Assembly: GCF_056746865.1 (NCBI RefSeq)
Contig: NZ_CM163382.1
Reading direction: 5' to 3' (one strand)
DNA length: 64,000 bases
A program made the translations under genes and the position numbers. This document shows positions 4,256 to 59,217 of the stretch, piece by piece. The number at the start of each line of letters is the position of its first letter. Position 1 is the first letter of the stretch. The notes under the pieces are model-generated. The model worked only from the letters and a program-made list of their open reading frames with translations. It was not told where the DNA came from and did no database searches.

Positions 4256-4332
<77 letters not shown>

Positions 4333-4423
4333 AATGCGGGGCGCATCTTACTGCGCAGATACGCCCTCGTCAATCCCTTAATAGCAAAATGCCTTTTGAT
4401 CGGCGAGAAAGTCAGCAGGCCTC

Positions 4424-7647: not shown

Positions 7648-7730
7648 GGCAGTATTCCTGCAGTAATAAAAAGGAAAAATCTCTGCTGACAACCATAACG
7701 AAGTGCACTTTATGCCTGGGGAAAAACGGC

Positions 7731-7761
7731 ATGAAATGCCATCAGAACGGAATGAAATGCA
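7731..7761 (-). promoter_or_regulatory. Direct repeats ATGAAATGC(C/A) spaced 21 bp apart (reverse complement GGCATTTCAT), consistent with the YpdB (LytTR) binding site in the yhjX promoter
   Basis: Repeats at 7731..7740 and 7752..7761 read directly; YpdB control of yhjX is established knowledge. Confidence 0.55.
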
Positions 7762-7875
7762 TTAGTTCAGGAATGAATGACTCGACAATTATTCACCAAA
7801 TTTATTATTTAGTAAGTTAGCACCCACTATCGCCACAACTGTTGTTATCCAATGGTTTCAATTGTATCTATAACG

Positions 7876-8580: not shown

Positions 8581-8731
8581 GACTCCAGGGAAGAGCCGAA
8601 TTCGGCAATATTATTGTCATTGTATGAAGGATATCGGGCATAGTAGCCCTGTATTAAATATTGACTTTTTCACCGATGCGTCAAGAAAAGCGGCTGAAAT
8701 TTTTACGATCGGGTACATAGCGAGGGAAAGT

Positions 8732-9295
8732 ATGGAACGTTGCGGCTGGGTGAGTCAGGACCCGCTTTATATTGCCTACCATGATAATGAATGGGGCGTG
8801 CCTGAAACTGACAGTAAAAAACTGTTCGAAATGATCTGCCTTGAAGGGCAGCAGGCTGGGTTATCGTGGATCACCGTCCTCAAAAAACGCGAAAACTATC
8901 GCGCCAGCTTTCATCAGTTCGATCCGGTGAAGGTGGCTGCAATGCAGGAAGAGGATGTCGAAAGACTGGTACAGGACGCCGGGATTATCCGCCATCGCGG
9001 GAAAATTCAGGCAATTATTGGTAATGCGCGGGCGTACCTGCAAATGGAACAGAACGGCGAACCGTTTGCCGACTTTGTCTGGTCGTTTGTCAATCATCAA
9101 CCACAGGTGACACAAGCCACAACGTTGAGCGAAATCCCTACATCTACGCCCGCCTCCGACGCTCTATCTAAAGCCCTGAAAAAGCGTGGTTTTAAGTTTG
9201 TTGGTACCACAATCTGTTACTCCTTTATGCAGGCATGTGGGCTGGTGAATGATCATGTGGTTGGCTGCTGTTGCTATCCGGGAAATAAACCATGA
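8732..9295 (+). CDS. tag: DNA-3-methyladenine glycosylase I (Tag), 187 aa
   Basis: Translation MERCGWVSQDPLYIAYHDNEWGVPETDSKKLFEMICLEGQQAGLSW...; start at ATG 8732. Confidence 0.95.
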   Translation: MERCGWVSQDPLYIAYHDNEWGVPETDSKKLFEMICLEGQQAGLSWITVLKKRENYRASFHQFDPVKVAAMQEEDVERLVQDAGIIRHRGKIQAIIGNARAYLQMEQNGEPFADFVWSFVNHQPQVTQATTLSEIPTSTPASDALSKALKKRGFKFVGTTICYSFMQACGLVNDHVVGCCCYPGNKP

Positions 9296-9732
9296 TTCGG
9301 GAAGCGCAACGTTCAGAACTCCCCGCGATCCTCGAACTGTGGCTGGAAAGTACAACCTGGGGGCATCCCTTTATAAAAGCGAATTACTGGCGTGATTGCA
9401 TTCCGCTGGTGCGGGATGCCTATCTTGCCAACGCGCAAAACTGGGTCTGGGAAGAAGACGGTAAGTTTCTCGGTTTTGTCAGCATTATGGAAGGCCGATT
9501 TCTGGCTGCAATGTTTGTCGCACCGAAGGCCGTCAGACGCGGTATTGGTAAGGCGCTGATGCAGTATGTGCAGCAGCGCCATCCCCATCTGATGCTGGAG
9601 GTTTATCAAAAAAATCAACCGGCGATAGATTTCTACCATGCGCAGGGTTTTCACATTGTCGACTGCGCATGGCAGGATGAAACCCAACTACCCACCTGGA
9701 TTATGAGCTGGCCGGTGGTTCAAACGCTGTAA
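9292..9732 (+). CDS. yiaC: GNAT family N-acetyltransferase YiaC
   Basis: Translation [33 protein letters not shown]...; overlaps tag stop by 4 bp. Confidence 0.92.
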
Positions 9733-12034
9733 GTGTCAGTTCCGGACCGTTGTATTTTTCCAGCCATGCCAGCGCCGTATTACCCGCACAGCCATTCCCC
9801 AGCCGCGAGCTGGGGAGATCTTTGGTCAGAACGTTCACCGCGCCGTTTTTACAAATACCGTCAGCGGTTAAATCCAGATCCGGCCAAGCCCCTTCATGAA
9901 TACAAATCACGCCAGGTTTAATTCCCTCGCTAATGACCGCTCCGGCAAGAATTTGCCCGCGTGCGTTCCACAACCGAACAATATCGCCATCTTGTATGCC
10001 GCGCGCCTGGGCATCGTCAGGATGAATGGTGACAGGCTCACGATTTGCCACCGCGTACAATTCGCGCAGAGAACTGTAATTCAGCTGGCTGTGCAGACGA
10101 TGTGCCGGATGAGCAGAAAGTACCTGCAACTGTTCCGGTTCGGCATTGCCCTGCCATTCGTCCGGCTCCAGCCACATTGGATGCCCAGGGCAATCCGGAT
10201 AAGCGTAATCGGCAATACGCTGCGAGAAGATTTCAATCTTGCCGCTGGCGGTTTTTAATGGATGCGCCTGCGGATCGCGGCGAAAATCGGCGAAGCGAAT
10301 AAACCGCTCACTGTCCGGGTTTTCCGGCATCTCAATTAACTGGTTGGCTTTCCAGAACTCAGCAAATGGCGGCAATTCAACCTGCTGGCTTGCCCCGCGC
10401 TGCCGGGCAACGTTATAAAACGTTTCCAGCCATTGCAGCTCACTTTGTCCTTCCGTAAACCGCGCATAGCCGCCCTTCTCCCAACGTTCACTCAACTCGG
10501 CAAAGACATCAAAATCATTACGCGCTTCATAACGTGGCGGCACCACTTGTTTCATCGGCACCAGATGCTGATTACTGTAATCACCGGTCATGGTGAGATC
10601 ATTACGCTCAAAAGAGGTAGTCGCAGGCAGAACGATATCCGCGTGTTTCGCCGCAGCCGTCCAGAAGCATTCAGAGATCACCACCAGCTCCGGTTTTTGC
10701 CAGGCACGGATCAGGCGATTGGTATCCTGATGATGAGTAAAGTTGGCACCGCCCGCCCACCAGATAAAACGAATATCCGGGAAATGTCGGTTCATACCGT
10801 TGTGTTGATATGCGCCACCAGGGTTTTCCAGTGCTTCAACAATGCGGGCAACAGGGATTTTATCTACCGCATCGGTGCCGCCAGGCAAGCTGCCCTGCAT
10901 GGAAGAGAGCACCGCAGAACGCCGCGTGGGGTTACCACCATTGGCAAAATGATAAGAAAGACCAAAACCGCCGCCGGGTGTGCCGATTTGCCCCAACATT
11001 GCCGCCAGCGTGACGATCATCCAATGTTTTTGCTCACCAAACTGTTGACGCTGCATTCCCCAGCCAGCCATCAGCATGGTCGTGTTTTGGTGGAAAAGAG
11101 CCGCCAGCTCGCGGATTTTCTCTGCGTTAACCCCACAAATCCCTGCCGCCCATTCGGCGGTTTTGGCTATTCCGTCACTCTCGCCCAGCAAATAAGAGGC
11201 GAAGACGGCATAACCGGTGGTGCAACGCGCCAGAAACGCTTCGTCGTGCCAACCATTTTCCACCAGCGTATAGGCGATCCCCAGCATCAGCGCAACATCG
11301 GTGCCCATGTGCGGTGCCACCCACTCCATTTTATCGCCAAAGAACTCAACGGTTTCCGATCGCATTGGATCAATGCAGATCAGCTTTTTCCCGCTGTCAC
11401 GCAGTGCAGAAAAGTAAGAAAGCCCCTGCTCATCGGATGCATTCCACGCAATTTTCAGCGTATTGAGTGGGTTAGCACTCCACAGCACCACGACATCGCT
11501 ATGTTCCAGCACCAACGGCCAACTGGTTTGCTGTTGATAAACTTCGCTGCCCCCCACGACATACGGCATGATCGCCTGTGCTGCACCGGTCGAATAATCC
11601 CCCAGATGCCCGGTATAACCGCCTGCCAGCGCCATATAGCGTTGTAATAATGTCGAGGCCTTATGCAGCACGCCGTTTGAACGCCAGCCGTAGGAACCAG
11701 CAAAAATCGATGCCGGACCATAAGCCTCACGAATGCGTTTATGTTGTTGGTGAATAAGATCCAGCGCCTCATCCCAACTCACACGAACAAATTCATCCTG
11801 CCCGCGAATGCCTTGCGGTTTTTCCGGTGACGCAAGAAAGCCTTTGCGCACCATTGGAAATCGTACCCGCGTATTGCTGTGAACCTGGTCGCGAACCGCG
11901 CTCTGCAAGGAGTTTTCCATTCCTGTGGTTAACGCGCCACGCGAGCTAAGCACGGTTTCGCCGTCGGTTTCAACCAGCATGGGCCCCCAGTGGGCGGCAG
12001 TCAGAACGGAATATCGTGAGGATGAGTTGGCCAA
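9701..12034 (-). CDS. bisC: Biotin sulfoxide reductase BisC (molybdopterin oxidoreductase)
   Basis: Translation [43 protein letters not shown]...; 777 aa; 3' end overlaps yiaC 3' end convergently by 32 bp. Confidence 0.95.
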
Positions 12035-35726: not shown

Positions 35727-36575
35727 TTATGTGATCGCGCCCTGGTCGTCCCTGACAGTAAATCCCAGTTCATTAGAAATAGCCTGCGCGGTTTCACGCA
35801 GTGGTTTCAGGAGATTTTTCTCCCCCACCTGTTTCAGACGCGATGTCGAAAGAGAAATCGACACGGCGTACGGCACCCGCCCATGAATATCAAACACCGG
35901 AACAGCAATACAAGAGACGCCGAGTTCGTTTTCTTCTCTGTCCATCGCCGCTCCGCTTTCACGAATGTGCGCCAGTTCGTCGAACATCGCGGGCAGCTCG
36001 GTAATGGTATTGCGGGTTAACGGCTGGATCTCATGCTGATGGCTTTCCCAGTATGACTTCACGTAGTCCGGGTGACCAAACGCCATGTAGATCTTGCCCA
36101 TTGCGGAACAGTAGAGCGGCATATGCTGGCCTATATAGGCACGGGTTCGCAGCATCCCGGTTGTGGGTTCCAGCTTATAAATCAAAATAGCGTGATCGTC
36201 TTCGCGGCTCGAGAAGTTAATGGTTTCACCAGTGGCGATGTTCAGTGCCTCAAGATGCGGAGCGGCGATATGAATGATATTCAGCGAAGACAGCGCCTTC
36301 TGCCCGACGGCAATAAATTTGGTAGTCAGGCGGTAACTCCCTGCGGCGGGCGCGGTGGTCACATAGCCGCAGGATTGTAATCCCTGCAATAAGCGATGGA
36401 CGGTACTCTTATTTAAACCAGCCAGCTCCGAAAGATGCGCCAACGGACAACCGTTTGGATAGTTGCTCAAAATCTCAATCAGCATCAACCCGCGAAACAG
36501 ACTCTGGCTTCCGGCTGGACGCTCTTTTTCCTGCGCCATCTCGTTCTCTTTTTTTCCCATCACTTCTTTCCCCAT
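35727..36575 (-). CDS. yiaJ: IclR-family transcriptional repressor YiaJ (PlaR) of the yiaK-sgbE operon
   Basis: Translation MGKEVMGKKENEMAQEKERPAGSQSLFRGLMLIEILSNYPNGCPLAHLSELAGLNKSTVHRLLQGL...; divergent from yiaK. Confidence 0.93.
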   Translation of the reverse strand: MGKEVMGKKENEMAQEKERPAGSQSLFRGLMLIEILSNYPNGCPLAHLSELAGLNKSTVHRLLQGLQSCGYVTTAPAAGSYRLTTKFIAVGQKALSSLNIIHIAAPHLEALNIATGETINFSSREDDHAILIYKLEPTTGMLRTRAYIGQHMPLYCSAMGKIYMAFGHPDYVKSYWESHQHEIQPLTRNTITELPAMFDELAHIRESGAAMDREENELGVSCIAVPVFDIHGRVPYAVSISLSTSRLKQVGEKNLLKPLRETAQAISNELGFTVRDDQGAIT

Positions 36576-36776
36576 TTTGTCGCGTCCTGATGGTAGCGCA
36601 AAGTGTGTCGTAGTTCACGATCTCGACAGATAATTTATAACCACTTGATTTTTAAGTTTTTTGAAATTCATCAATCAGATTGCTTTGTTAAAAAGCGATC
36701 GATATATTTGAAATCAGATTTCGCATATTGAAATTTTATGCCAAAAAAGCGATCAAAAAAAACAAGGAAGCCAAGG

Positions 36777-38253
<1,477 letters not shown>

Positions 38254-38370
38254 ACGGATAAGCGTCCATGACAGAACGCCTGGGTAATGTCATTACTCTA
38301 ACCATATTAATAATTCAGGTTGCTGCACATGCAACTTGAATTATGACAAACATAGCCTCAAGGAATAGCT

Positions 38371-38844
38371 ATGAAAAAAATACTTGAAGCAATACTGGCG
38401 ATTAATCTCGCCGTACTTTCCTGTATTGTGTTTATAAACATTATTTTAAGATATGGTTTTCAAACAAGTATTTTATCTGTAGATGAATTGTCGCGTTATT
38501 TATTTGTCTGGTTAACATTTATTGGCGCGATTGTGGCTTTTATGGATAACGCCCACGTTCAGGTCACCTTTCTGGTGGAGAAACTCTCCCCCGCATGGCA
38601 GCGACGAGTCGCTCTGGTTACCCATTCCTTAATCTTATTTATTTGTGGCGCACTGGCCTGGGGCGCAACGCTAAAAACAATTCAGGACTGGAGCGATTAT
38701 TCACCGATCCTCGGTTTGCCTATCGGCCTGATGTATGCCGCTTGTCTGCCCACCAGCCTCGTTATCGCATTCTTTGAACTGCGTCATTTATATCAACTCA
38801 TCACGCGTAGCAATTCTCTAACGTCGCCACCGCAAGGAGCTTAA
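38371..38844 (+). CDS. yiaM: TRAP transporter small permease (DctQ-like)
   Basis: Translation [47 protein letters not shown]... Confidence 0.93.
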
Positions 38845-38846
38845 TC

Positions 38847-40124
38847 ATGGCTGTGCTGATTTTTCTGGGCTGTCTGTTGGGTGGTATTGCTATCGGTTTG
38901 CCTATTGCCTGGGCACTGTTGTTGTGCGGGGCGGCGTTAATGTTCTGGCTGGAGATGTTTGATGTCCAGATCATGGCACAAACGCTGGTGAACGGAGCCG
39001 ACAGCTTCTCCCTGCTGGCGATTCCGTTCTTTGTGCTGGCGGGTGAAATCATGAATGCGGGCGGCTTGTCAAAACGCATTGTTGACCTGCCGATGAAACT
39101 GGTGGGGCATAAACCAGGCGGGCTGGGCTACGTCGGCGTGCTGGCGGCTATGATTATGGCAAGCCTTTCTGGTTCTGCCGTTGCGGATACCGCCGCCGTT
39201 GCCGCTCTACTGGTGCCGATGATGCGCAGCGCCAACTACCCGGTCAACCGGGCGGCGGGGCTGATTGCCTCTGGCGGCATTATCGCGCCAATTATTCCCC
39301 CTTCCATTCCGTTTATTATTTTCGGCGTTTCCAGCGGATTATCCATCAGTAAGCTGTTTATGGCGGGCATTGCCCCTGGCATGATGATGGGCGCAACGCT
39401 GATGCTTACCTGGTGGTGGCAGGCCAGTCGTCTTAACTTACCCCGCCAGCAAAAAGCGACGATGCAGGAAATCTGGCACTCTTTTGTCTCCGGTATCTGG
39501 GCGCTGTTTCTTCCAGTCATCATTATTGGCGGGTTTCGCTCCGGTCTGTTTACCCCTACCGAAGCCGGGGCCGTTGCTGCTTTCTATGCGCTGTTTGTCG
39601 CCACAGTTATTTACCGTGAAATGACCTTCGCCACACTTTGGCATGTGCTCATTGGCGCAGCGAAAACGACCTCAGTGGTGATGTTTCTGGTGGCCTCGGC
39701 ACAAGTTTCCGCCTGGCTGATCACCATTGCTGAACTGCCGATGATGGTTTCTGATTTACTGCAACCGCTGGTCGATTCACCGCGTCTGCTGTTTATCGTC
39801 ATTATGGTGGCTATCCTGATTGTCGGCATGGTCATGGATTTAACGCCGACGGTATTAATTCTTACCCCGGTATTAATGCCTTTAGTTAAAGAGGCAGGAA
39901 TCGATCCGATTTATTTCGGTGTCATGTTTATCATTAACTGCTCAATCGGCTTAATTACACCGCCTATCGGTAATGTGCTTAACGTTATTTCAGGGGTGGC
40001 AAAACTCAAATTCGATGATGCAGTCAGAGGCGTTTTCCCTTACGTCCTGGTTTTATATTCATTATTAGTCGTATTTGTTTTTATTCCCGATCTCATCATC
40101 CTCCCTTTGAAATGGATTAATTAA
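38847..40124 (+). CDS. yiaN: TRAP transporter large permease (DctM-like)
   Basis: Translation MAVLIFLGCLLGGIAIGLPIAWALLLCGAALMFWLEMFDVQIMAQ...; 425 aa. Confidence 0.95.
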   Translation: MAVLIFLGCLLGGIAIGLPIAWALLLCGAALMFWLEMFDVQIMAQTLVNGADSFSLLAIPFFVLAGEIMNAGGLSKRIVDLPMKLVGHKPGGLGYVGVLAAMIMASLSGSAVADTAAVAALLVPMMRSANYPVNRAAGLIASGGIIAPIIPPSIPFIIFGVSSGLSISKLFMAGIAPGMMMGATLMLTWWWQASRLNLPRQQKATMQEIWHSFVSGIWALFLPVIIIGGFRSGLFTPTEAGAVAAFYALFVATVIYREMTFATLWHVLIGAAKTTSVVMFLVASAQVSAWLITIAELPMMVSDLLQPLVDSPRLLFIVIMVAILIVGMVMDLTPTVLILTPVLMPLVKEAGIDPIYFGVMFIINCSIGLITPPIGNVLNVISGVAKLKFDDAVRGVFPYVLVLYSLLVVFVFIPDLIILPLKWIN

Positions 40125-40136
40125 AAGGAAAATATT

Positions 40137-41123
40137 ATGAAATTACGCTCTGTAACCTACGCATTATTAATTGCCGGAGTGGCGGCGTTCAGCACATCTT
40201 CTCTGGCGGCACAATCTTTACGTTTCGGTTATGAAACATCACAAACCGACTCGCAACATATTGCGGCGAAAAAATTCAATGAATTATTACAGGAAAAAAC
40301 CAAAGGCGAACTGAAATTAAAATTGTTTCCGGATAGCACCCTCGGTAATGCGCAGGCGATGATCAGCGGCGTGCGTGGCGGCACCATCGATATGGAAATG
40401 TCCGGCTCGAATAACTTTGCCGGGTTATCACCAGTGATGAACTTGCTTGATGTCCCTTTCCTGTTCCGCGATACCGCCCACGCGCATAAAACGCTCGACG
40501 GCAAAGTCGGTGATGACCTGAAAGTCTCCCTTGAAGGTAAAGGTCTGAAAGTGCTCGCTTACTGGGAAAACGGCTGGCGCGATGTCACCAACTCGCGCGC
40601 ACCGGTTAAAACCCCCGCCGACCTGAAAGGGCTGAAAATTCGCACCAACAATAGCCCGATGAATATCGCCGCATTCAAAGTCTTTGGCGCTAACCCGATT
40701 CCGATGCCGTTTGCCGAAGTCTATACCGGGCTGGAAACCCGCACTATCGACGCTCAGGAACACCCTATCAACGTCGTCTGGTCAGCAAAATTTTTCGAAG
40801 TACAGAAGTACCTTTCTCTGACGCACCACGCCTATTCGCCACTTCTGGTGGTGATCAACAAAGCGAAGTTTGATGGCTTAAGCCCGGAGTTCCAGCAGGC
40901 GCTAGTTTCATCTGCACAAGAAGCGGGTAACTATCAGCGCAAACTGGTTGCCGAAGATCAGCAAAAAATCATCGACGGTATGAAAGATGCGGGCGTGGAA
41001 GTCATCACCGATCTCGACCGCAAAGCCTTTAGCGACGCGCTGGGTACTCAGGTCCGCGACATGTTTGTAAAAGATGTTCCGCAGGGCGCTGACCTGCTGA
41101 AAGCCGTGGATGAGGTGCAATAA
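40137..41123 (+). CDS. yiaO: TRAP transporter periplasmic solute-binding protein (2,3-diketo-L-gulonate binding)
   Basis: Translation MKLRSVTYALLIAGVAAFSTSSLAAQSLRFGYETSQTDSQHIAAKKF...; DctP family. Confidence 0.95.
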   Translation: MKLRSVTYALLIAGVAAFSTSSLAAQSLRFGYETSQTDSQHIAAKKFNELLQEKTKGELKLKLFPDSTLGNAQAMISGVRGGTIDMEMSGSNNFAGLSPVMNLLDVPFLFRDTAHAHKTLDGKVGDDLKVSLEGKGLKVLAYWENGWRDVTNSRAPVKTPADLKGLKIRTNNSPMNIAAFKVFGANPIPMPFAEVYTGLETRTIDAQEHPINVVWSAKFFEVQKYLSLTHHAYSPLLVVINKAKFDGLSPEFQQALVSSAQEAGNYQRKLVAEDQQKIIDGMKDAGVEVITDLDRKAFSDALGTQVRDMFVKDVPQGADLLKAVDEVQ

Positions 41124-41126
41124 ACC

Positions 41127-42623
41127 ATGACGCAATACTGGCTGGGGTTAGATTGTGGCGGTAGCTGGCTGAAAGCCGGGCTGTATGACCGCGAAGGCCG
41201 GGAGGCAGGCGTGCAGCGCCTGCCGCTGTGCGCATTAAGCCCGCAGCCAGGTTGGGCAGAGCGCGATATGGCAGAACTGTGGCAATGCTGCATGGCTGTC
41301 ATTCGCGCCCTGCTTACTCATACTGGCGTTAGCGGGGAACAAATAGTGGGTATCGGTATCTCCGCACAGGGAAAGGGGTTGTTTTTACTGGATAAAAACG
41401 ACAAGCCGCTCGGGAATGCTATTTTGTCCTCGGATCGCCGGGCGATGGAAATCGTTCGTCGCTGGCAGGAAGATGGCATCCCGGAAAAACTCTACCCGCT
41501 GACGCGACAAACCTTGTGGACCGGGCATCCGGTGTCGCTGTTACGCTGGCTGAAAGAGCACGAACCGGAACGCTACGCGCAAATTGGCTGCGTGATGATG
41601 ACGCACGACTACCTGCGCTGGTGTTTAACCGGCGTCAAAGGCTGTGAAGAGAGCAATATTTCCGAGTCCAATCTCTACAACATGAGTCTTGGGGAATATG
41701 ACCCGTGCCTCACCGACTGGCTTGGGATCGCTGAAATCAACCACGCCCTGCCGCCTGTTGTCGGATCTGCCGAAATCTGCGGGGAGATCACCGCTCAGAC
41801 AGCCGCACTGACCGGTCTGAAAGCGGGTACGCCCGTTGTCGGCGGCCTGTTTGATGTGGTTTCCACCGCACTCTGTGCCGGGATCGAAGACGAATTTACC
41901 CTTAATGCGGTGATGGGCACCTGGGCGGTGACCAGCGGCATAACCCGTGGTTTACGTGACGGTGAAGCGCATCCGTATGTCTATGGTCGCTACGTTAACG
42001 ATGGTCAATTTATCGTTCACGAAGCCAGCCCTACCTCTTCCGGCAACCTCGAATGGTTTACCGCACAGTGGGGAGAAATCTCGTTTGATGAGATTAACCA
42101 GGCCGTTGCCAGCTTGCCGAAGGCCGGGGGCGATCTCTTTTTCCTGCCGTTCCTGTACGGCAGCAACGCCGGACTCGAGATGACTAGCGGTTTCTACGGG
42201 ATGCAGGCCATTCACACCCGCGCACACCTGTTGCAGGCCATTTATGAAGGCGTAGTGTTCAGCCATATGACCCATCTCAACCGGATGCGCGAACGTTTTA
42301 CTGATGTGCACACCCTGCGCGTCACTGGCGGCCCGGCGCACTCCGATGTCTGGATGCAAATGCTGGCGGACGTCAGCGGGCTGCGTATCGAACTGCCGCA
42401 GGTGGAAGAAACCGGCTGTTTTGGCGCGGCGCTTGCCGCCCGCGTCGGCACCGGGGTTTATCACAACTTCAGCGAAGCCCAGCGCGATCAACAGCACCCG
42501 GTGCGCACACTGCTGCCGGATATGACCGCCCATCAGCTTTACCAACAAAAATACCAACGCTATCAGCATCTCATTGCCGCACTTCAGGGCTTTCACGCCC
42601 GCATCAAGGAGCACACATTATGA
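41127..42623 (+). CDS. lyxK: L-xylulose / 3-keto-L-gulonate kinase
   Basis: Translation MTQYWLGLDCGGSWLKAGLYDREGREAGVQRLPL...; FGGY kinase; 498 aa. Confidence 0.95.
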   Translation: MTQYWLGLDCGGSWLKAGLYDREGREAGVQRLPLCALSPQPGWAERDMAELWQCCMAVIRALLTHTGVSGEQIVGIGISAQGKGLFLLDKNDKPLGNAILSSDRRAMEIVRRWQEDGIPEKLYPLTRQTLWTGHPVSLLRWLKEHEPERYAQIGCVMMTHDYLRWCLTGVKGCEESNISESNLYNMSLGEYDPCLTDWLGIAEINHALPPVVGSAEICGEITAQTAALTGLKAGTPVVGGLFDVVSTALCAGIEDEFTLNAVMGTWAVTSGITRGLRDGEAHPYVYGRYVNDGQFIVHEASPTSSGNLEWFTAQWGEISFDEINQAVASLPKAGGDLFFLPFLYGSNAGLEMTSGFYGMQAIHTRAHLLQAIYEGVVFSHMTHLNRMRERFTDVHTLRVTGGPAHSDVWMQMLADVSGLRIELPQVEETGCFGAALAARVGTGVYHNFSEAQRDQQHPVRTLLPDMTAHQLYQQKYQRYQHLIAALQGFHARIKEHTL

Positions 42624-43282
42624 GCCGACCACTTCTGCAACTGGCCCTCGACCACTCATCACTTGAAGACGCACAGCGCGACGTGACGCTGTTAAAAGAC
42701 AGCGTCGATATCGTCGAAGCGGGCACCATTCTCTGTTTAAACGAAGGGCTTGGCGCGGTGAAAGCCTTGCGCGAACAGTGCCCGGACAAAATCATCGTCG
42801 CTGACTGGAAGGTCGCCGATGCCGGTGAAACGCTCGCGCAACAGGCATTTGGCGCAGGCGCTAACTGGATGACCATCATCTGCGCCGCGCCGCTCGCGAC
42901 GGTGGAAAAAGGCCACGCCATGGCGCAACGCTGCGGTGGTGAAATTCAGATAGAACTGTTCGGCAACTGGACGCTGGACGACGCCCGCGACTGGCATCGT
43001 ATTGGCGTGCGGCAGGCCATTTATCATCGCGGTCGTGACGCGCAAGCCAGCGGGCAACAGTGGTGCGAAGCCGATCTGGCACGTATGAAGGCGCTTTCCG
43101 ATATCGGCCTTGAGCTTTCCATTACCGGCGGGATTACCCCTGCTGACCTGCCGCTGTTTAAAGATATCCGCGTGAAAGCGTTTATTGCCGGGCGGGCGCT
43201 GGCAGGCGCAGCAAATCCGGCGCAGGTGGCTGGCGATTTCCATGCGCAAATCGACGCTATCTGGGGAGGCGCGCGTGCGTAA
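42620..43282 (+). CDS. sgbH: 3-keto-L-gulonate-6-phosphate decarboxylase
   Basis: Translation [51 protein letters not shown]...; overlaps lyxK stop by 4 bp. Confidence 0.95.
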
Positions 43283-44135
43283 TCATCCGTTAGGTATTTA
43301 TGAAAAAGCGCTGGCGAAAGATCTCTCCTGGCCTGAGCGGCTGGTGCTGGCGAAAAGCTGCAGTTTTGATTTTGTCGAAATGTCGGTGGATGAAACCGAC
43401 GAACGTTTGTCACGCCTTGACTGGAACGCCGCACAACGTGCTTCGCTGGTCACTGCGATGATCGAAACGGGTGTTGCCATTCCGTCGATGTGCCTGTCCG
43501 CACATCGTCGCTTTCCCTTTGGCAGCCGGGACAAGGCGGTGCGCGAACGGGCGCGGGAAATCATGAGTAAAGCGATTCGCCTGGCGCGCGATCTCGGCAT
43601 TCGCACCATTCAACTGGCGGGTTATGACGTCTATTACGAAGACCACGACGAAGGCACCCAGCAACGTTTTGCTGAAGGGCTGGCGTGGGCGGTCGAACAG
43701 GCGGCGGCATCACAAGTAATGCTGGCGGTGGAGATTATGGATACCGCGTTTATGAACTCCATCAGCAAATGGAAAAAGTGGGACGAGATGCTCGCCTCGC
43801 CGTGGTTCACCGTCTACCCGGACGTCGGCAACCTCAGCGCCTGGGGCAATGATGTTCCCGCCGAACTGAAACTGGGCATTGACCGTATTGCCGCAATCCA
43901 TCTGAAAGACACCCTGCCAGTCACCGGGCAAAATCCCGGACAGTTCCGTGATGTGCCGTTTGGCGAAGGCTGCGTCGATTTCGTTGGCATCTTCAAAACG
44001 CTGCATGAACTGAACTATCGCGGTTCTTTCCTGATTGAGATGTGGACCGAAAAAGCCAAAGAGCCGGTGCTGGAGATTATTCAGGCGCGGCGCTGGATTG
44101 AAGCGCGTATGCAGGAGGCTGGATTTATATGTTAG
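43275..44135 (+). CDS. sgbU: L-xylulose-5-phosphate 3-epimerase, 286 aa
   Basis: Translation (V/M)[44 protein letters not shown]...; inferred GTG start at 43275 inside sgbH 3' end (ORF track starts 30 codons earlier). Confidence 0.9.
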
Positions 44136-44824
44136 AGCAACTGAAAGCCGACGTGCTGGCGGCGAATCTGGCGCTTCCCGCTCACCATCTGGTGACGTTC
44201 ACCTGGGGCAATGTCAGCGCGGTAGACGAAACGCGGCAATGGATGGTAATCAAACCTTCCGGCGTCGAGTACGACGTGATGACCGCCGACGATATGGTGG
44301 TGGTTGAGATAGCCAGCGGTAAGGGGGTGGAAGGCAGCAAAAAGCCCTCGTCCGACACGCCAACGCATCTGGCGCTCTACCGTCGCTATGCCGAAATCGG
44401 TGGCATTGTGCATACCCACTCGCGCCACGCGACCATCTGGTCACAGGCCGGGCTGGATCTCCCCGCCTGGGGCACCACGCACGCCGATTACTTCTATGGA
44501 GCCATCCCCTGCACGCGCCTGATGACCGCAGAAGAGATCAACGGCGAGTATGAATACCAGACTGGCGAAGTGATCATTGAAACCCTCGAAGAACGCGGCA
44601 GGAGTCCAGCGCAAATCCCGGCGGTTCTGGTACATTCTCACGGCCCGTTCGCCTGGGGAAAAAATGCCGCCGATGCAGTGCATAACGCCGTGGTGCTGGA
44701 AGAGTGTGCCTATATGGGCCTGTTCTCGCGTCAGCTTGCGCCGCAGCTCCCTGCGATGCAAAACGAACTGTTAGATAAGCACTACCTGCGTAAGCATGGG
44801 GCCAATGCCTATTACGGGCAGTAA
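44129..44824 (+). CDS. sgbE: L-ribulose-5-phosphate 4-epimerase
   Basis: Translation [49 protein letters not shown]...; class II aldolase fold; 231 aa. Confidence 0.95.
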
Positions 44825-44832
44825 TCCCTCAC

Positions 44833-44854
44833 GCCGGGGCTTCATTGCCCCGGC
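44833..44854. terminator. Bidirectional hairpin terminator between convergent sgbE and the AraC-family regulator
   Basis: gccggggcttcattgccccggc perfect 8-bp stem. Confidence 0.65.
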
Positions 44855-44855
44855 A

Positions 44856-45671
44856 CTACGAATTGATATGTTCCTTGCTGTAACGTCGCTTCCACGCAGC
44901 TGGCGTTAAACCGGTGTGTTTGCGAAAAATCTGTCGGAAATAGCCAACGTCATTAAACCCGCACAACGCAGCCACTTCAGTGAGCGATCGCGCTTCGCTA
45001 ATTAACAGCTTTTCGGCTTCGCGCACTCGCTGGCGATGAATTGCTTCTGTTAACGTCAGATGAAACACCCGCCGGTAGACGCGCCCAAGATAATCGGCAT
45101 TGCAGTACAGCTCGCGGGCTAAAAGCGCCGTGGAAAGCGGGCGATGATATTGCGTGCGGATCAGTTTCTGCGCTTTCCAGGCAAGCGTGGTACCTGCGGC
45201 ATCGGCCTGTTCATCAAGACGCGCGTCACGGGTGAGTTGCTGCAAAATCAGCAGCACAATAAACTCCAGCGCCGGAGTGCGTTGATGCTTTTCCTGTTCG
45301 CTTAAGAACTGGCGAAACAGGGCCACCAGCGCCTGCCGATCGGCAACCTTTGTTTGTTGCGGCACGCTAAGATGAGTGAGCCAGCGCGGGTCGCTATCCG
45401 GCGCTTTAACCTCAAAATGCAGCCAGTAAAATTTGAGATCGGCGGGAAAATCCTCTACCCCAACATGCTGTCGGTTCGGCCAGAGTAATAAACTCTCTCC
45501 CGCATCGACCAGAAATATCCGCTCTTCTTCCTGAATCGCTAATCGACCTTTTTCGACAAAGATAATTTCCCATGACTCCAGCCGCCTTGCCGGATGCCTC
45601 CCTACGCCACGGGAAATAAATAATCCACCATTTTGCACTTTAATCGGTAACGTCATGGATAATTCGAGCAT
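44856..45671 (-). CDS. AraC-family transcriptional regulator (N-terminal cupin-type sugar-binding domain, C-terminal HTH); accessory cassette
   Basis: Translation ...FLVDAGESLLLWPNRQHVGVEDFPADLKFYWLHF...LTEVAALCGFNDVGYFRQIFRKHTGLTPAAWKRR; alternative start at 45656. Confidence 0.85.
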   Translation of the reverse strand: MLELSMTLPIKVQNGGLFISRGVGRHPARRLESWEIIFVEKGRLAIQEEERIFLVDAGESLLLWPNRQHVGVEDFPADLKFYWLHFEVKAPDSDPRWLTHLSVPQQTKVADRQALVALFRQFLSEQEKHQRTPALEFIVLLILQQLTRDARLDEQADAAGTTLAWKAQKLIRTQYHRPLSTALLARELYCNADYLGRVYRRVFHLTLTEAIHRQRVREAEKLLISEARSLTEVAALCGFNDVGYFRQIFRKHTGLTPAAWKRRYSKEHINS

Positions 45672-45896
45672 TGATATGTAATTTCCCGCTTATTCATTAA
45701 TGATTAAACACATTACCTTTTGATTATTAATCAAAAACATTAATTTCACCTGATCCAATTCACACTTTTAAATTCAGGTCGGAATCGTCACCTTTTTTTA
45801 CTCTTTTCTCGCCTTGTTGATATTCCCGTTCACGGCAGAATTAATCAGGTCATTGCAATAAAACTAAAAATTGCTCCCTATTCACGAGGAATATCT
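45672..45896. promoter_or_regulatory. AT-rich divergent promoter region of AraC-family regulator and GPH transporter operon, with near-palindromic ttgattattaatcaa elements
   Basis: Read directly; markedly lower GC than flanking core genes. Confidence 0.5.
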
Positions 45897-47297
45897 ATGA
45901 CCTCTACACCGATTACTACCGCTGATATCGCTAAAGGTAAAATTGACGATGCGTTATCTGTACGGGAAAAAATAGGCTACGGCCTGGGTGACGCAGGCGG
46001 CACCGTAATAACTTGCCTGATCATGAACTTTCTCACCTTTTTCTACACCGACGTTTTTGGCTTAACTCCGGCGCTGGTCGGCACGCTGTTTATTGCACTG
46101 CGCGTGTTTGATGCCATCTCCGACCCGGTGATGGGCGTCATTGCCGACCGGACGCAAAGTCACTGGGGGCGCTTTCGTCCGTGGCAGTTATGGATTGCCA
46201 TTCCCATCGGCATTATCGGCATCCTGACGTTCACCGTGCCAGATGCCAGCATGGGAGTAAAAATCGCCTGGGCGTTCGGCACTTACCTGCTCCTTTCAGT
46301 CGGTTATACCGCCATCAACGTGCCGTACTGCGCGCTGATCAACACCATGACCACCCGCCACAATGAAGTGATCTCCTGCCAGTCCTGGCGATTCGTTCTC
46401 TGCGGTGTAGCGGGATTTCTGGTTTCGGTAGGCTTACCGTGGATGGTGGATCTCTTCGGTCAGGGTAATGCCGCGCGCGGCTATCAACTGGGCGTCGGCG
46501 TGCTGTGCGCCATCGCTGTGGTGATGTTCCTGTGCTGTTTCTTCTGGGTTCGTGAACGGGTACCACTCTCCACAATGGGGAAATTTACCCTGCGCGAACA
46601 TCTTGCCGGGCTGCGAAACAACGACCAACTGCTGCTGATGCTGGTCATGTCTTTCCTGCTGATTAACGTCTTTAATATTCGCGGCGGTGGGTATATGTAC
46701 TTCATTACCTACGTCTTACAAGGCAGTACGGGCTACACGTCGCTGTTCTTCACTATGGTCACCTTCGCCTCCATTATCGGCTCGGTGATTGTCAGCCCGT
46801 TAACGCGACGTTTCGATACCGTCAAAATTTACTACTACACCAACCTGCTCCTCGCTGCGCTGGCGGTGTTGATGTGGTTCCTGCCCTCTGGCCCGGCTTA
46901 TCAAACGCTGTGGCTGGCGGTGATCCTCGGTAATGGCGTGATTCTTGGCTTCACATTGCCACTGCACTTCTCATTGATGGCCTTTGCCGATGACTACGGC
47001 GAGTGGAAAACCCGCGTACGTTCTTCCGGCATGAACTTCGCCTTCAATCTGTTTTTCATCAAGCTGGCCTGGGCCTCCAGCGCCGGGATCATCAGCCTGC
47101 TGTTTATTTTTGTCGCCTACCAGCCAGGCGTGGAAAACCAGACCGCCAGTTCGCTTGGCGGGATCACAGCAATGGAAACATTGCTGCCTGCGCTATTCCA
47201 CCTGCTGCTGGCGATGGCGATCCGCTTTTGCAAACTCAATAACCCTATGATGTCACGCATTGCTAGCGACCTGCGTCAGCGTCATGTACAGCCTTAA
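45897..47297 (+). CDS. Glycoside-pentoside-hexuronide (GPH) family sugar:cation symporter (MelB/YicJ-like)
   Basis: Translation [56 protein letters not shown]... 12-TM; ATG 45897 preceded by GAGGA. Confidence 0.88.
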
Positions 47298-47307
47298 GGA
47301 GCACAAG

Positions 47308-49272
47308 ATGAACATTTCGGAAGTCGATCTGCATAAACTGACGGTCAGCGATCCGTTCCTCGGTCAGTACCAACAACTGGTCCGCGATGTGGTGATTCCT
47401 TATCAGTGGGACGCCTTGAACGATCGTATCCCAGAAGCGGAACCCAGCCATGCGATTGAAAACTTTCGCATTGCCGCAGGACTGCAAGACGGTGAATTTT
47501 ACGGGATGGTGTTTCAGGACAGCGACGTCGCCAAATGGCTGGAAGCGGTAGCCTGGTCGCTGTGCCAGAAGCCGGATGCCGAACTGGAAAAAACTGCTGA
47601 CGAGGTGATTGAACTGATCGCCTCCGCCCAGTGCGAAGATGGCTATCTCAATACTTACTTTACGGTAAAAGCGCCCGAAGAACGCTGGAGCAATCTGGCG
47701 GAGTGTCATGAACTTTACTGCGCCGGTCATCTGATTGAAGCCGGAGTCGCCTTCTTCCAGGCCACGGGCAAGCGGCGCTTGCTGGAAGTGGTTTGCCGTC
47801 TGGCCGATCATATCGACAGCGTATTTGGTCCAGGTGAAAGTAAGTTACACGGTTATCCTGGTCACCCGGAAATTGAACTGGCACTAATGCGCCTGTATGA
47901 AGTGACCGAAGAGCCGCGCTACCTGGCGCTGACGAACTATTTTGTCGAACAGCGTGGTGCGCAACCGCACTATTACGACCAGGAATATGAAAAGCGCGGG
48001 CAGACCTCGCACTGGCACACCTACGGCCCGGCGTGGATGGTGAAAGATAAAGCCTACAGCCAGGCGCATTTGCCCATCGCACAGCAACAAACCGCCATCG
48101 GACATGCAGTACGCTTTGTCTACCTGATGACTGGCGTCGCACATCTGGCGCGTTTAAGTCACGATGAAAGCAAGCGTCAGGATTGCCTGCGGCTGTGGAA
48201 CAATATGGCCCAGCGTCAGTTATATATTACCGGCGGCATTGGCTCACAAAGCAGCGGTGAAGCGTTCAGCAGCGATTACGATCTGCCGAATGACACGGTA
48301 TACGCTGAAAGTTGCGCCTCCATCGGCCTGATGATGTTTGCCCGGCGAATGCTGGAAATGGAAGGCGACAGTCAATATGCCGATGTGATGGAGCGCGCGC
48401 TGTACAACACTGTGCTCGGCGGCATGGCACTGGATGGCAAACATTTCTTCTATGTGAATCCGCTGGAAGTACATCCAAAATCGCTGAAATTCAACCATAT
48501 CTACGATCACGTTAAACCGCTCCGCCAGCGTTGGTTTGGCTGCGCTTGTTGTCCTCCAAATATCGCCCGCGTACTGACCTCGATTGGTCATTATCTCTAC
48601 ACGCCGCGTGAAGATGCGTTGTATATCAACATCTACGCAGGAAACAGCATGGAAGTGCCGGTAGAAAATGGCACGTTGTGCCTGCGGGTTAGCGGGAACT
48701 ATCCGTGGCAGGAACAGGTGACAATTGCGGTTGAATCGCCCCAGCCGGTGCGTCATACGCTGGCTTTACGTCTGCCGGACTGGTGCACACAGCCGCAGAT
48801 CATATTGAATGGGGAAGAGGTCGAGCAGGATATTCGTAAAGGGTATTTGCACATTACCCGCGAATGGCAGGAGGGCGATACGCTGAATCTGACTTTGCCG
48901 ATGCCGGTACGCCGCGTTTACGGTAACCCTCTGGTGCGTCACGTCGCCGGAAAAGTGGCGATTCAGCGCGGCCCGCTGGTGTATTGCCTGGAACAGGCCG
49001 ACAACGGCGAGTCACTGCATAACCTGTGGCTGCCCGCCGATGCGCCATTTACGACCTTTGAAGGCAAGGGATTGTTCAGCCATAAGATCTTAATCCAGGC
49101 ACCGGGTTACCGGTATGAACAGAGCAATCCAGAGCAGCAACCGCTGTGGCATTACGACAGTGCGCCAGCCAAACGCCAGCCGCAAACTCTGACGTTTATC
49201 CCGTGGTTTAGCTGGGCTAACCGGGGTGAAGGCGAAATGCGGATCTGGGTGAATGAGGAAACCAGCGCATGA
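47308..49272 (+). CDS. GH127 family (DUF1680) glycoside hydrolase, putative beta-L-arabinofuranosidase
   Basis: Translation MNISEVDLHKLTVSDPFLGQYQQLV...; motifs SGEAF, YAESCAS and WFGCACCPPN in spacing matching the HypBA1 Glu/Glu-x-Cys/Cys-Cys catalytic and Zn site as recalled; ATG 47308 preceded by AAGGAG, 10 bp after transporter stop. Confidence 0.85.
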   Translation: MNISEVDLHKLTVSDPFLGQYQQLVRDVVIPYQWDALNDRIPEAEPSHAIENFRIAAGLQDGEFYGMVFQDSDVAKWLEAVAWSLCQKPDAELEKTADEVIELIASAQCEDGYLNTYFTVKAPEERWSNLAECHELYCAGHLIEAGVAFFQATGKRRLLEVVCRLADHIDSVFGPGESKLHGYPGHPEIELALMRLYEVTEEPRYLALTNYFVEQRGAQPHYYDQEYEKRGQTSHWHTYGPAWMVKDKAYSQAHLPIAQQQTAIGHAVRFVYLMTGVAHLARLSHDESKRQDCLRLWNNMAQRQLYITGGIGSQSSGEAFSSDYDLPNDTVYAESCASIGLMMFARRMLEMEGDSQYADVMERALYNTVLGGMALDGKHFFYVNPLEVHPKSLKFNHIYDHVKPLRQRWFGCACCPPNIARVLTSIGHYLYTPREDALYINIYAGNSMEVPVENGTLCLRVSGNYPWQEQVTIAVESPQPVRHTLALRLPDWCTQPQIILNGEEVEQDIRKGYLHITREWQEGDTLNLTLPMPVRRVYGNPLVRHVAGKVAIQRGPLVYCLEQADNGESLHNLWLPADAPFTTFEGKGLFSHKILIQAPGYRYEQSNPEQQPLWHYDSAPAKRQPQTLTFIPWFSWANRGEGEMRIWVNEETSA

Positions 49273-49343
49273 TGCGACGCTTAACGCGTCTTATCAGTAT
49301 CAACATATCGGTGCGGTTGCCCGCTAACCATCGAAACGCGAGA

Positions 49344-49754
49344 TTAAACGCCCGGCAATACACGCCGGGCAGCTTCTGCCAGAAACGCACTTCTGTTGGC
49401 GTAGTCTGGGTTATTGCGCACGTAGGTATCAATCTTGTTCAGTAACCTTTTCGGCATCGTAATATTGATACGTTCAGCCCGACCTTCGAACTGATTCATA
49501 TTGATATCCACCAGCAACCATTGCCCGCCAATAAAGTCCTGCGCACGCTGGACCAGATGTGTTTCCACAGAGCCTGGAAGCGGCAACTCTTCATTCATCT
49601 CGCATAAGGTTTCGAAGTGCGCGACCAGTGCACTTCGCGCATCCTGGAAAGCGTTGTCCAGCGTATCACCAGCAAAATAACAGCCTGGAACATCAGGGAA
49701 AAAACCGCTGGCGCTGCCGTCAGGATCACTGTGGATATAGGCGGGATAAAACAT
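49344..49754 (-). CDS. hicB: HicB-family antitoxin (RNase H-like N-domain plus C-terminal ribbon-helix-helix)
   Basis: Translation MFYPAYIHSDPDGSASGFFPDVPGCYFAGDTLDNAFQDARSALVAHFE...NITMPKRLLNKIDTYVRNNPDYANRSAFLAEAARRVL. Confidence 0.8.
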   Translation of the reverse strand: MFYPAYIHSDPDGSASGFFPDVPGCYFAGDTLDNAFQDARSALVAHFETLCEMNEELPLPGSVETHLVQRAQDFIGGQWLLVDINMNQFEGRAERINITMPKRLLNKIDTYVRNNPDYANRSAFLAEAARRVLPGV

Positions 49755-49770
49755 ATTGCCTCCTGAAATT

Positions 49771-49956
49771 TTAAAATGTTAAACCAGCCTGACGCCCAAT
49801 TTGCGCCAGCGTACCGGGCTTAATATCTTTTTTAGGGTGCGGAACCGTCACCAGACCCGGATGAACAGGGTGGCGGAACTGATGATGACTGCCACGGGTT
49901 CGAATATGTTCCCAGCCATGCTGCTTCAGGATGGCGATCACGTCTGCACTTTTCAC
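49771..49956 (-). CDS. hicA: HicA-family toxin (YcfA-like mRNA interferase), 61 aa
   Basis: Translation MKSADVIAILKQHGWEHIRTRGSHHQFRHPVHPGLVTVPHPKKDIKPGTLAQIGRQAGLTF; 16 bp upstream of hicB on same strand. Confidence 0.8.
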   Translation of the reverse strand: MKSADVIAILKQHGWEHIRTRGSHHQFRHPVHPGLVTVPHPKKDIKPGTLAQIGRQAGLTF

Positions 49957-50182
49957 ATCCCTGCCCTTCCATGATTATACACACGATACACACACAATTA
50001 GCGATAACAATCACGATAGCGCGATTTATATGGGCCGTCAGGGGGATAAAGTTGACTCAGGAATGCCACTCGGAAGAAGAATAACGGTGTGCAGTAATTG
50101 GTAGAAAATATGCGAGGAGACTCGTAATTAAGTTCAATCAATATTCAGTCATTCAAGACGTAGACATTTGAATTGATAAAAC

Positions 50183-50202
50183 GCGCAAACGTCGCATCAG
50201 GC
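50183..50202. repeat. REP-like element (gcgcaaacgtcgcatcaggc) immediately downstream of aldB
   Basis: Matches REP consensus core. Confidence 0.5.
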
Positions 50203-50233
50203 AATGAATACCCAATGCGACCAGCTTCTTATA

Positions 50234-51772
50234 TCAGAACAGCCCCAACGGTTTATCCGAGTAGCTCACCAGCAGGCACTTGGTTTGCTGGTAATGCTCA
50301 AGCATCATCTTATGGGTTTCGCGTCCGATGCCCGACTGTTTGTAGCCGCCAAACGCCGCATGTGCCGGGTAAGCGTGATAACAGTTGGTCCACACGCGTC
50401 CAGCCTGAATGCCGCGCCCCATCTTATAGGCCAGATTACCGTTGCGGCTCCAGACACCCGCGCCCAGGCCATATTGTGTGTCGTTCGCCAGCTCCAGCGC
50501 TTCTTCCATCGTTTTGAAGGTGGTCACCGCCAGCACCGGACCAAAAATTTCTTCCTGGAACACGCGCATATTATTCTGACCAAACAGAATCGTCGGTTCG
50601 AGGTAGTAGCCGTCTTTCAGTTCTCCTTCCAGCAGCTTGCGCCGCCCGCCGGTGAGCACGTCTGCGCCCTCTTTTTTACCAATATCAATGTAGTTGAGGA
50701 TGGTTTCCAGTTGCCCGTGAGAAACCTGCGCGCCCATTTGCGTCACGCTGTCGAGCGGGTTACCGCTACGAATACTTTCAACACGGCGGATGGCGCGTTC
50801 CATGAAGCGTTCGTAGATAGACTCCTGCACTAAAGCACGGCTTGGACAGGTGCAAACTTCGCCCTGGTTAAAGGCAAACAGTGCAAAGCCTTCCAGCGCT
50901 TTATCAAAAAAGGCATCTTCTTCATCCATCACGTCAGCAAAGAAGATATTTGGCGATTTGCCGCCCAGCTCCAGCGTCACCGGAATAATGTTTTGCGTGG
51001 CGTATTGCATAATTTGTTGACCCACTTCCGTTGAGCCGGTAAACGCCACTTTGGCGATGCGTTTCGAGGTCGCCAGATATTCGCCAATTTCCCCACCTGC
51101 ACCGTTGACCACGTTCACCACGCCCGGCGGCAGTAAATCACCGACGATTTCCATTAGCAGCAGTACAGAAAGCGGGGTAAGACGTGCGGGTTTCAGCACC
51201 ACACAGTTGCCCGCCGCCAGCGCGGGAGCCATTTTCCAGCTCGCCATCAGCAGCGGGAAGTTCCACGGAATAATCTGCCCCACCACGCCTAACGGTTCGT
51301 GGAAGTGATAAGCCACAGTTTCGCTATCCACTTCACTAATACCGCCTTCCTGCGCCCGAATACACGAGGCAAAATAGCGGAAATGGTCAATCGCCAGCGG
51401 TACATCAGCAGCACTGGTTTCGCGAATGGGTTTGCCGTTATCCCAGGTTTCAGCCGTCGCTAACAGTTCAAGGTTTTGTTCCATTCGATCGGCAATCTTA
51501 AACAGAATCGCCGCGCGATCCTGCACCGAGGTATGCGCCCATTTATCTTTCACTTTGTGCGCAGCATCCAGCGCCAGATCGATGTCTCGTTTGCCCGAAG
51601 ACGCCACTTCGCACAGCCGCTGCCCGGTCACCGGCGTCAGGTTCTGGTAATACTCGCCGTCGGCAGGGGCTACCCATTCGCCGCCAATAAAGTTGTCGTA
51701 GCGGGCTTTTAACTTGAGGGGGAAACCATACTCGCCGGGCTTAATCTGTGCTGAAGGGGGATTATTGGTCAT
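50234..51772 (-). CDS. aldB: Aldehyde dehydrogenase B, 512 aa
   Basis: Translation [48 protein letters not shown]...; start at ATG 51770..51772. Confidence 0.96.
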
Positions 51773-59040: not shown

Positions 59041-59217
59041 TGTGATTCAGATCACAAAGATTCAACAAACTAACAAAACAAAAATGTGACATTACTCACA
59101 TTTAAATGCCATTTTTAGCGAAAATCGCCGCCTTGTTGCTTTTTTACACAGTCGTTTTGTGATGAGCATCACGTCAATTACCTCTCTACCCCCTATATTT
59201 ATGTGACTGATATCACA
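59041..59217 (+). promoter_or_regulatory. mtlA promoter region with at least four CRP-type palindromes TGTGA-N6-TCAC(A/G): 59041..59056, 59085..59100, 59158..59173, 59202..59217
   Basis: Palindromes read directly (tgtgattcagatcaca; tgtgacattactcaca; tgtgatgagcatcacg; tgtgactgatatcaca); multiple CRP sites in mtl promoter are established knowledge. Confidence 0.7.

Follow-up and report, generated by a model that had tools for sequence, protein, structure and literature searches.

A three-gene cassette at positions 44856-49272 of a 64,000-nt stretch of contig NZ_CM163382.1 (assembly GCF_056746865.1; hereafter the window, whose numbering is used throughout) comprises an AraC-family regulator, a GPH-family sugar:cation symporter, and an enzyme of glycoside hydrolase family 127 (GH127). 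Protein family membership, active-site conservation, and gene order together point to a chromosomal, activator-controlled module that would import small beta-L-arabinofuranosides and hydrolyze them in the cytoplasm to L-arabinose, and this reading is given a probability of about 0.65. Uptake and cleavage of a beta-L-arabinofuranoside in general is held with more confidence than the identity of any particular disaccharide. The trio is uncharacterized yet unsurprising, as all of its parts are close to known families and the enzyme has already been named GH127 by RefSeq. The features on which the argument is built are the following:

44856-45671, minus strand: AraC/XylS-family regulator gene, an open reading frame of 271 aa with an N-terminal AraC-type cupin and a C-terminal double helix-turn-helix.
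45672-45896: regulatory region between the divergent genes, 225 bp long and AT-rich, in which a footprint of 72 distinct sequences shows blocks of deep conservation.
45886-45889, plus strand: ribosome-binding site GAGG of the GPH gene, 7 nt before the ATG and conserved in the footprint.
45897-47297, plus strand: gene for a GPH-family (TC 2.A.2) glycoside:cation symporter, 466 aa, a predicted importer of small L-arabinofuranosides.
47296-47301, plus strand: ribosome-binding site AAGGAG of the GH127 gene, overlapping the GPH stop codon.
47308-49272, plus strand: GH127 cysteine glycosidase gene, 654 aa, without signal peptide, a predicted cytoplasmic beta-L-arabinofuranosidase.
44960-48980: segment of 4,021 bp deleted in K-12 and absent from about 45% of complete E. 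coli genomes, where 3′ stubs of the AraC and GH127 genes are left, from a blastn comparison of K-12 with the window, RefSeq pseudogenes, and population counts.

An earlier note on this DNA, made from the letters alone, had described the AraC gene as divergent from a GPH-GH127 pair separated by 10 bp and an AAGGAG site, and the open reading frames bear this out exactly. The GPH stop codon, TAA, occupies 47295-47297 and the GH127 ATG begins at 47308, and this 10-nt gap, along with the enzyme gene's own ribosome-binding site, argues for an operon. In a mechanical list of reading frames, the GH127 frame reaches an upstream TTG at 47260; alignment of GH127 orthologues from ∼80 species begins at residue 1-3, which favors the ATG start (MNISEV) over the TTG. 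RefSeq uses the same three starts, with GH127 at the ATG, for E. coli CFSAN061770, a raw-milk cheese isolate whose genome is a 100% match. RefSeq names the three products "AraC family transcriptional regulator", "MFS transporter", and "glycoside hydrolase family 127 protein". The fraction of G and C is 0.38-0.41 in the intergenic region and 0.53-0.57 in the three coding regions, the latter matching the genes on either flank, sgbE and aldB.

The GH127 protein matches all three Pfam domains of its family, namely PF07944 (residues 12-427, E=1e-111), PF20736 (residues 438-532), and PF20737 (residues 534-649), which comprise a catalytic (alpha/alpha)6 domain with middle and C-terminal beta-sandwich domains. 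Its top relative of solved structure is Ara127N from Geobacillus stearothermophilus T6 (PDB 4QJY), with 54.8% identity over 630 aligned residues (E=4e-235), followed by HypBA1 from Bifidobacterium longum (3WKW; E=5e-153). Residue roles and a list of substrate-site residues (H142, Y145, H194, and R273) are available for HypBA1 (PMC10850190). The E. coli enzyme carries the motifs SGEAF, YAESCAS, and WFGCACCPPN, and a HMMER alignment to HypBA1 pairs E318 with the acid/base E322, E334 with E338, C336 with C340, C414 with the nucleophile C417, and C415 with C418. The numbering and spacing of these Glu and Cys residues, which the earlier note had given, were correct for all five. The zinc site of HypBA1, formed by one glutamate and three cysteines (E338, C340, C417, and C418), is thus kept entirely as E334, C336, C414, and C415, and by the same alignment the substrate-site residues H134, Y137, H186, and R269 are identical to H142, Y145, H194, and R273 of HypBA1. 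Thirteen positions, including catalytic, zinc-ligand, and named substrate-site residues and four further conserved residues, are invariant across 83 sequences, and no loss of the active-site Glu or zinc-binding Cys residues was seen among them, in agreement with the active cysteine glycosidase that the earlier note had proposed. No signal-peptide features were found at the N-terminus (MNISEVDLHKLTVSDPF...), and the enzyme should therefore be cytoplasmic. The only NCBIfam match was to the aceric acid hydrolase model NF049879 (455.9 bits against a cut-off of 950; best stretch residues 252-649), and identity with that enzyme was rejected on account of a score well below the curated cut-off and partial coverage.

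The symporter scores above the cut-off of the GPH model TIGR00792 (330.8 against 231.35 bits) and matches Pfam MFS_2 (E=3e-73), so the assignment to a sugar:cation symporter family was upheld and membership of a non-sugar family was not borne out. The closest named subfamilies are YagG (NF007237; 355 bits against 610) and PRK11462 (323 bits against 836), and orthology to YagG or YicJ was rejected, both scores being far under the curated cut-offs; the carrier is instead a separate lineage within the pentoside-type part of the family. Homology searches with the carrier returned only close orthologues named "MFS transporter", and no functional name for it was found in any source examined. When aligned to the MelB structure over residues 20-460, the carrier retains the helix II cation-site residues Asp55 and Asp59 as Asp72 and Asp76, has Ser75 in place of Asn58 and Asn in place of Asp124, and does not conserve the sugar-site residues K18 and D19. 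That it is coupled to protons rather than sodium is a guess from knowledge of MelB variants and the serine at the Asn58 equivalent.

A search of 1.84 billion representative proteins showed the carrier clade to be fairly isolated, the next full-length clusters being 62%, 43%, and 42% identical. A gene for a GH51-type alpha-L-arabinofuranosidase directly precedes the 62% cluster, a GH43 gene directly follows the 42% cluster, and more distant relatives adjoin GH31, GH101-like, or GH3 genes. The pairing of carrier and cytoplasmic glycosidase that is customary in the family holds, and the nearest neighbors point to arabinofuranoside-type or pentoside-type cargo. The 62% relative (4312-7404 of metagenome contig L084) also adjoins a GntR regulator and a TRAP transporter, and its locus has the look of a sister module that handles alpha-linked arabinofuranosides.

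The trio is widespread and its arrangement is stable. A scan of one genome per species yielded 278 relatives, of which the best 80 were retained as loci, and the order and orientation AraC-GPH-GH127 are the same in ∼70 of the 80, representing ∼70 species of Enterobacterales. The genera include Escherichia, Citrobacter, Klebsiella, Raoultella, Enterobacter, Kluyvera, Leclercia, Lelliottia, Kosakonia, Phytobacter, Pantoea, Mixta, Buttiauxella, and Rouxiella, and the trio is also present in non-enterica subspecies of Salmonella. In many relatives, as in the window, it sits between sgbE and aldB. Pairwise omega, the ratio of nonsynonymous to synonymous divergence, is 0.03-0.14 for all three genes (0.04-0.08 within Escherichia), and when the same pairs of genomes are compared, synonymous divergence (dS) in the trio goes along with that in sgbE and aldB. 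By these comparisons the trio is an old, vertically inherited unit under strong purifying selection, ancestral in Enterobacteriaceae. No alpha-L-arabinofuranosidase or arabinanase gene was found beside the trio in the ∼70 loci, and nearby extra genes are unrelated. Internal stops interrupt the GH127 tblastn translations of Buttiauxella izardii (L060) and Enterobacter asburiae AEB30 (L064), which may be pseudogenes or sequencing errors.

Outside the Enterobacterales, Bradyrhizobium spp. (L075-L079 and L082) encode a GH127 protein that shares 72% identity with the E. coli enzyme and is not accompanied by the AraC and GPH genes, and the high identity between alpha- and gamma-proteobacterial enzymes suggests an old transfer. 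In one of these loci (L082), a gene for an S9 (oligopeptidase B-like) peptidase at 7701-9794 lies directly upstream of the GH127 gene at 9989-11953. No carbohydrate enzymes were found near the Citrobacter werkmanii and Bradyrhizobium loci, where the neighbors are instead a chemoreceptor, regulators, a sensor kinase, and the S9 peptidase.

Within E. coli the locus varies between strains, as had been supposed from the sequence. At least 80% of the cassette is carried by 2,312 of 5,426 complete genomes (43%), always on the chromosome, and no plasmid copies were found among the 5,426; a further ∼2,470 genomes (46%) match only ∼7% of the cassette and ∼640 have no match. In genomes sampled, the cassette reading frames are intact and free of pseudogene flags. 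K-12 retains two stubs between sgbE and yiaT, consisting of the final 33 AraC-gene codons and GH127 codons 559-621, which RefSeq annotates as pseudogenes and which we take to be ysaC and ysaD. A strain genotype gives the order yiaS-ysaC ... ysaD-yiaT, in agreement with this naming (PMC12361893). The K-12 junction in blastn is clean, with window position 44959 joined directly to 48981, and K-12 has lost the module through one 4,021-bp deletion.

The earlier note had supposed that K-12 carries yiaT-yiaW in place of the cassette, which did not hold: K-12 has deletion stubs, and in O157:H7 the intact cassette is followed by yiaTUVW, so yiaT-W are neighbors of the cassette and not a replacement for it. 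O157:H7 itself lacks the whole yiaK-S (lyx/sgb) operon (window 35868-44843), leaving the cassette abutting a 3′ remnant of the IclR-family gene yiaJ, and this deletion in the neighborhood is a second one, independent of that in K-12. The window is without yiaTUVW and has, where K-12 and O157:H7 carry those genes, the toxin-antitoxin pair hicB (49344-49754, minus strand) and hicA (49771-49956, minus strand) between GH127 and aldB. The two arrangements switch ∼11 nt before the GH127 stop codon, and the last residues of the enzyme therefore differ between them. In several other genera, too, GH127 is followed by a HicB homologue (e.g., L022, L033, and L044-L046), so both arrangements must be old. 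The sgbE region (44099-44959) is only 94.3% identical to K-12 and the cassette ∼96.7% identical to O157:H7; core DNA of E. coli would be expected to diverge less, and old haplotypes or recombination in the interval are suggested.

The regulator contains the Pfam domains AraC_binding (residues 26-132, E=1.5e-8), HTH_18 (residues 184-263, E=4e-19), and HTH_AraC. By curated cut-offs it is not AraC proper (NF007860; 61 bits against 208), MelR (39 against 253), RhaR (43 against 525), or RhaS. In each of the ∼70 orthologous loci its gene is transcribed away from the operon, and a phylogenetic footprint of the 72 distinct intergenic sequences showed several blocks to be almost invariant between genera:

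45720-45732: near-invariant block TTGATTATTAATC, which may hold the regulator's -10 element, TAATAAT, on the minus strand.
45749-45764, plus strand: candidate CRP-like site CCTGATCCAATTCACA, with an invariant TCACA right half and inner GATC and a weak left half.
45776-45819, plus strand: candidate AraC-type activator site, predicted to abut or overlap a poor -35 element.
45835-45845, plus strand: GCAGAATnAAT, a candidate operon -10 element (near 45836-45841) at the expected distance from the GPH start.

The invariant part of the CRP-like site extends into a conserved block, GATC-N4-TCACA-N-TTT, at 45752-45768. The candidate activator site consists of two blocks, AGGTCGGAATCGTCAyCTTTTTwTACT (45776-45803) and CCTTGTTG (45812-45819), which hold the top-conserved non-coding columns between genera. 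This putative layout of a CRP site, a regulator site reaching the -35 element, and a -10 element would resemble that of araBAD or melAB. A scan of 44700-50300 (5.6 kb) for consensus sigma-70 promoters found 0 against 5.5 expected, which hints at a weak, activator-dependent promoter. The 79-bp operator region is present as a single copy in each of 2,321 E. coli genomes, and the regulator therefore looks local. An Rfam scan of the region gave no credible match, with no riboswitch or known RNA. In Citrobacter, Klebsiella, and Pantoea (L006, L024, L026, and L036), the leader of the GPH gene contains an additional CCCGC-N5-7-GCGGG hairpin, at a place aligned to window ∼45870-45885, that Escherichia lacks.

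Under the proposed mechanism, the GPH symporter would use a cation gradient to import a small glycoside that bears beta-L-arabinofuranose at its non-reducing end. The most economical cargo would be a beta-linked L-arabinobiose such as Araf-beta1,2-Ara, set free from plant hydroxyproline-rich glycoproteins by other microbes. The cytoplasmic GH127 enzyme would then cleave it by a retaining mechanism, with zinc-bound Cys414 as nucleophile and Glu318 as acid/base, and the L-arabinose product would feed the core araBAD pathway. The divergent AraC-type protein is predicted to sense the sugar or its product and to switch on a weak promoter from the conserved site just upstream of the -35 element, probably aided by CRP. 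The physiological substrate of HypBA1 is Araf-beta1,2-Ara, freed by a GH121 enzyme (PMC10850190). Beta-arabinobiose is the most economical candidate because it is this natural substrate, because its cleavage would leave E. coli with no unusable remainder, and because no alpha-L-arabinofuranosidase or arabinanase accompanies the trio.

Several observations weigh against a beta-L-arabinofuranoside module of this kind or against details of its control. GH127 is a polyspecific family that includes a 3,6-anhydro-D-galactosidase, and its specificities other than arabinofuranosidase also include aceric acid hydrolase. Loop A of HypBA1 (residues 35-49) has been described as covering the active site (PMC10850190), and compared with HypBA1 the E. 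coli and Geobacillus enzymes have this loop shortened by 12 residues; the aglycone or +1 specificity may therefore differ from that of HypBA1. At the promoter, the CRP-like match at 45749-45764 has 2 mismatches, and such matches in the window number 37 against 26 expected, which is not above chance. A 21-bp periodicity is expected for AraC-type half-sites, and in the activator region the 21-bp direct-repeat offset scores highest (0.44), barely over offsets 9 and 12. To our knowledge, no E. coli enzyme releases beta-arabino-disaccharides from plant glycoproteins, and the model therefore needs cross-feeding or scavenging from other microbes or from plant turnover. The searchable literature, a scope outside which most subscription journals fall, yielded no enzyme assay, growth or mutant study, or expression study of any enterobacterial member.

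Other readings keep the logic of import and hydrolysis and change the cargo. Longer oligosaccharides derived from arabinan or arabinogalactan proteins and capped by beta-L-Araf, with other enzymes handling the remaining chain, are the first of the rivals, though an unlikely one. The glycosides taken up by GPH carriers are usually mono- to trisaccharides, none of the ∼70 loci has an alpha-L-arabinofuranosidase or arabinanase gene next to the trio, and E. coli would be unable to cleave the alpha-linked remainder; on the other side, Ara127N, the closest characterized homolog, belongs to an arabinan/arabinose utilization cluster (PMC4428132), and beta-L-Araf caps are present in arabinan and arabinogalactan proteins (PMC10850190). 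That the sugar is a different one, such as aceric acid, 3,6-anhydro-D-galactose, or another rare furanoside, is doubtful. The polyspecificity of GH127, the shortened loop A, and the aceric acid hydrolase model as sole NCBIfam match would be consistent with it, whereas that match reaches 456 bits against 950 over residues 252-649 only, the top structural relatives are by far the two beta-L-arabinofuranosidases, the named HypBA1 substrate-site residues are identical, and the carrier's nearest clades accompany arabinofuranosidase-type genes. With its short loop A and dedicated carrier, the module might alternatively serve a distinct cargo such as hydroxyproline-arabinosides or arabinosylated plant peptide fragments, although this is given a slim chance; the S9 peptidase gene beside the 72% identical GH127 of Bradyrhizobium is a loose hint at glycopeptide substrates. 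If such a cargo were imported, plant- and gut-associated Enterobacterales would have a specific means of using glycopeptides of hosts or plants as food, or of interfering with them.

The remaining alternatives concern the status of the cassette rather than its substrate. A decaying relic without present function in E. coli would account for its loss from more than half of E. coli genomes and for the occasional orthologues with internal stops, and is nonetheless very improbable given the omega of 0.04-0.08 in Escherichia, the intact reading frames in sampled genomes, and the invariant regulatory blocks. Least credible of all is a recent horizontal island at a site where K-12 has yiaT-yiaW, in line with the earlier note, which had read the AT-rich promoter region as a sign of horizontal origin. 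That the cassette is found in only ∼43% of complete E. coli genomes would fit such an island, as would the AT-rich intergenic region; it is refuted by the shared locus and gene order over the Enterobacterales, by dS like that of sgbE and aldB, by omega of 0.03-0.14, by the K-12 end stubs, and by the coexistence of cassette and yiaTUVW in O157:H7. The hallmarks of a genomic island were likewise not found, as coding GC is not atypical and resembles that of neighboring genes, the locus is not different in relatives, and plasmid copies are missing.

Several known systems come close to the proposed module. The B. longum system comprises the GH127 enzyme HypBA1, the GH121 enzyme HypBA2, a GH43 enzyme, an ABC importer, and a LacI regulator, and imports a small beta-L-arabino-oligosaccharide that is then split to L-arabinose (PMC10850190, PMC7263609). 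The E. coli module is predicted to follow the same course with a cytoplasmic GH127 enzyme whose catalytic, zinc-ligand, and named substrate-site residues are identical; it differs in having no extracellular releasing enzymes, a GPH carrier rather than an ABC importer, and an AraC-type activator rather than a LacI repressor. The match to HypBA1 is also weaker than that to Ara127N (E=5e-153 against 4e-235), and loop A is 12 residues shorter. Ara127N (PDB 4QJY/4QK0) shares the short loop A, the three domains, and the intracellular location and is the closest solved relative, yet its gene stands last in a large arabinan/arabinose cluster of Gram-positive type with ABC transporters, whereas the E. 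coli trio is self-contained.

In gene content, the trio resembles melR/melAB, with a divergent AraC-type activator, a GPH carrier that aligns with MelB over its whole length and keeps both MelB cation-site aspartates, and a cytoplasmic glycosidase. The mel operon is CRP-assisted. It differs in that the order of the operon genes is reversed, the mel glycosidase belongs to GH4, and the substrate is another one; K18, D19, and D124 of MelB are not kept in the carrier, Asn58 is replaced by Ser, and the regulator scores 39 bits against 253 on the MelR model. The pairs yagG-yagH and yicJ-yicI also join a GPH carrier to a pentoside-type glycosidase and include the nearest named subfamilies of the carrier, with partner enzymes from GH43 and GH31 and carriers that are not orthologous. 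The aceric acid hydrolase of Bacteroides thetaiotaomicron has the same GH127 family and fold, and is set apart by the score on its model (456 against 950 bits) and by the rank of its PDB relative, well under the arabinofuranosidases.

In the searchable literature, GH127 of E. coli appears in comparative genomics only, and no defined substrate or physiological role for the trio was found there, as the earlier note had believed. GH127 has been listed as a clade-dependent CAZy family in E. coli (bioRxiv 10.1101/2021.10.19.464957) and was among the genes best correlated with Caco-2 invasion in isolates from inflammatory bowel disease, where it was interpreted through homology to HypBA1 (PMC11879602). 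A study of O157:H7 and plant arabinose stated that E. coli cannot access L-Araf directly and made no mention of the locus (PMC8489885). If the proposed function is correct, about four in ten E. coli, including O157:H7, and many Klebsiella, Enterobacter, Citrobacter, and Pantoea would use beta-linked L-arabinofuranosides, and this use would hinge on cross-feeding from organisms that free the sugars from plant glycoproteins. The loss of the module in K-12 would explain why it was overlooked, and repair of the 4-kb deletion in MG1655 offers a clean gain-of-function route to a direct test. Because presence or absence of GH127 largely reflects one old deletion common to whole lineages, association studies call for caution, and the correlation with invasiveness of adherent-invasive E. 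coli (PMC11879602) may mirror ancestry and not function.

Elsewhere in the window, four CRP-consensus sites, three of them perfect, lie within 180 bp at 59041-59217 in the mtlA-yibI intergenic region, upstream of mtlA. This cluster is presumably the multi-CRP mannitol promoter.

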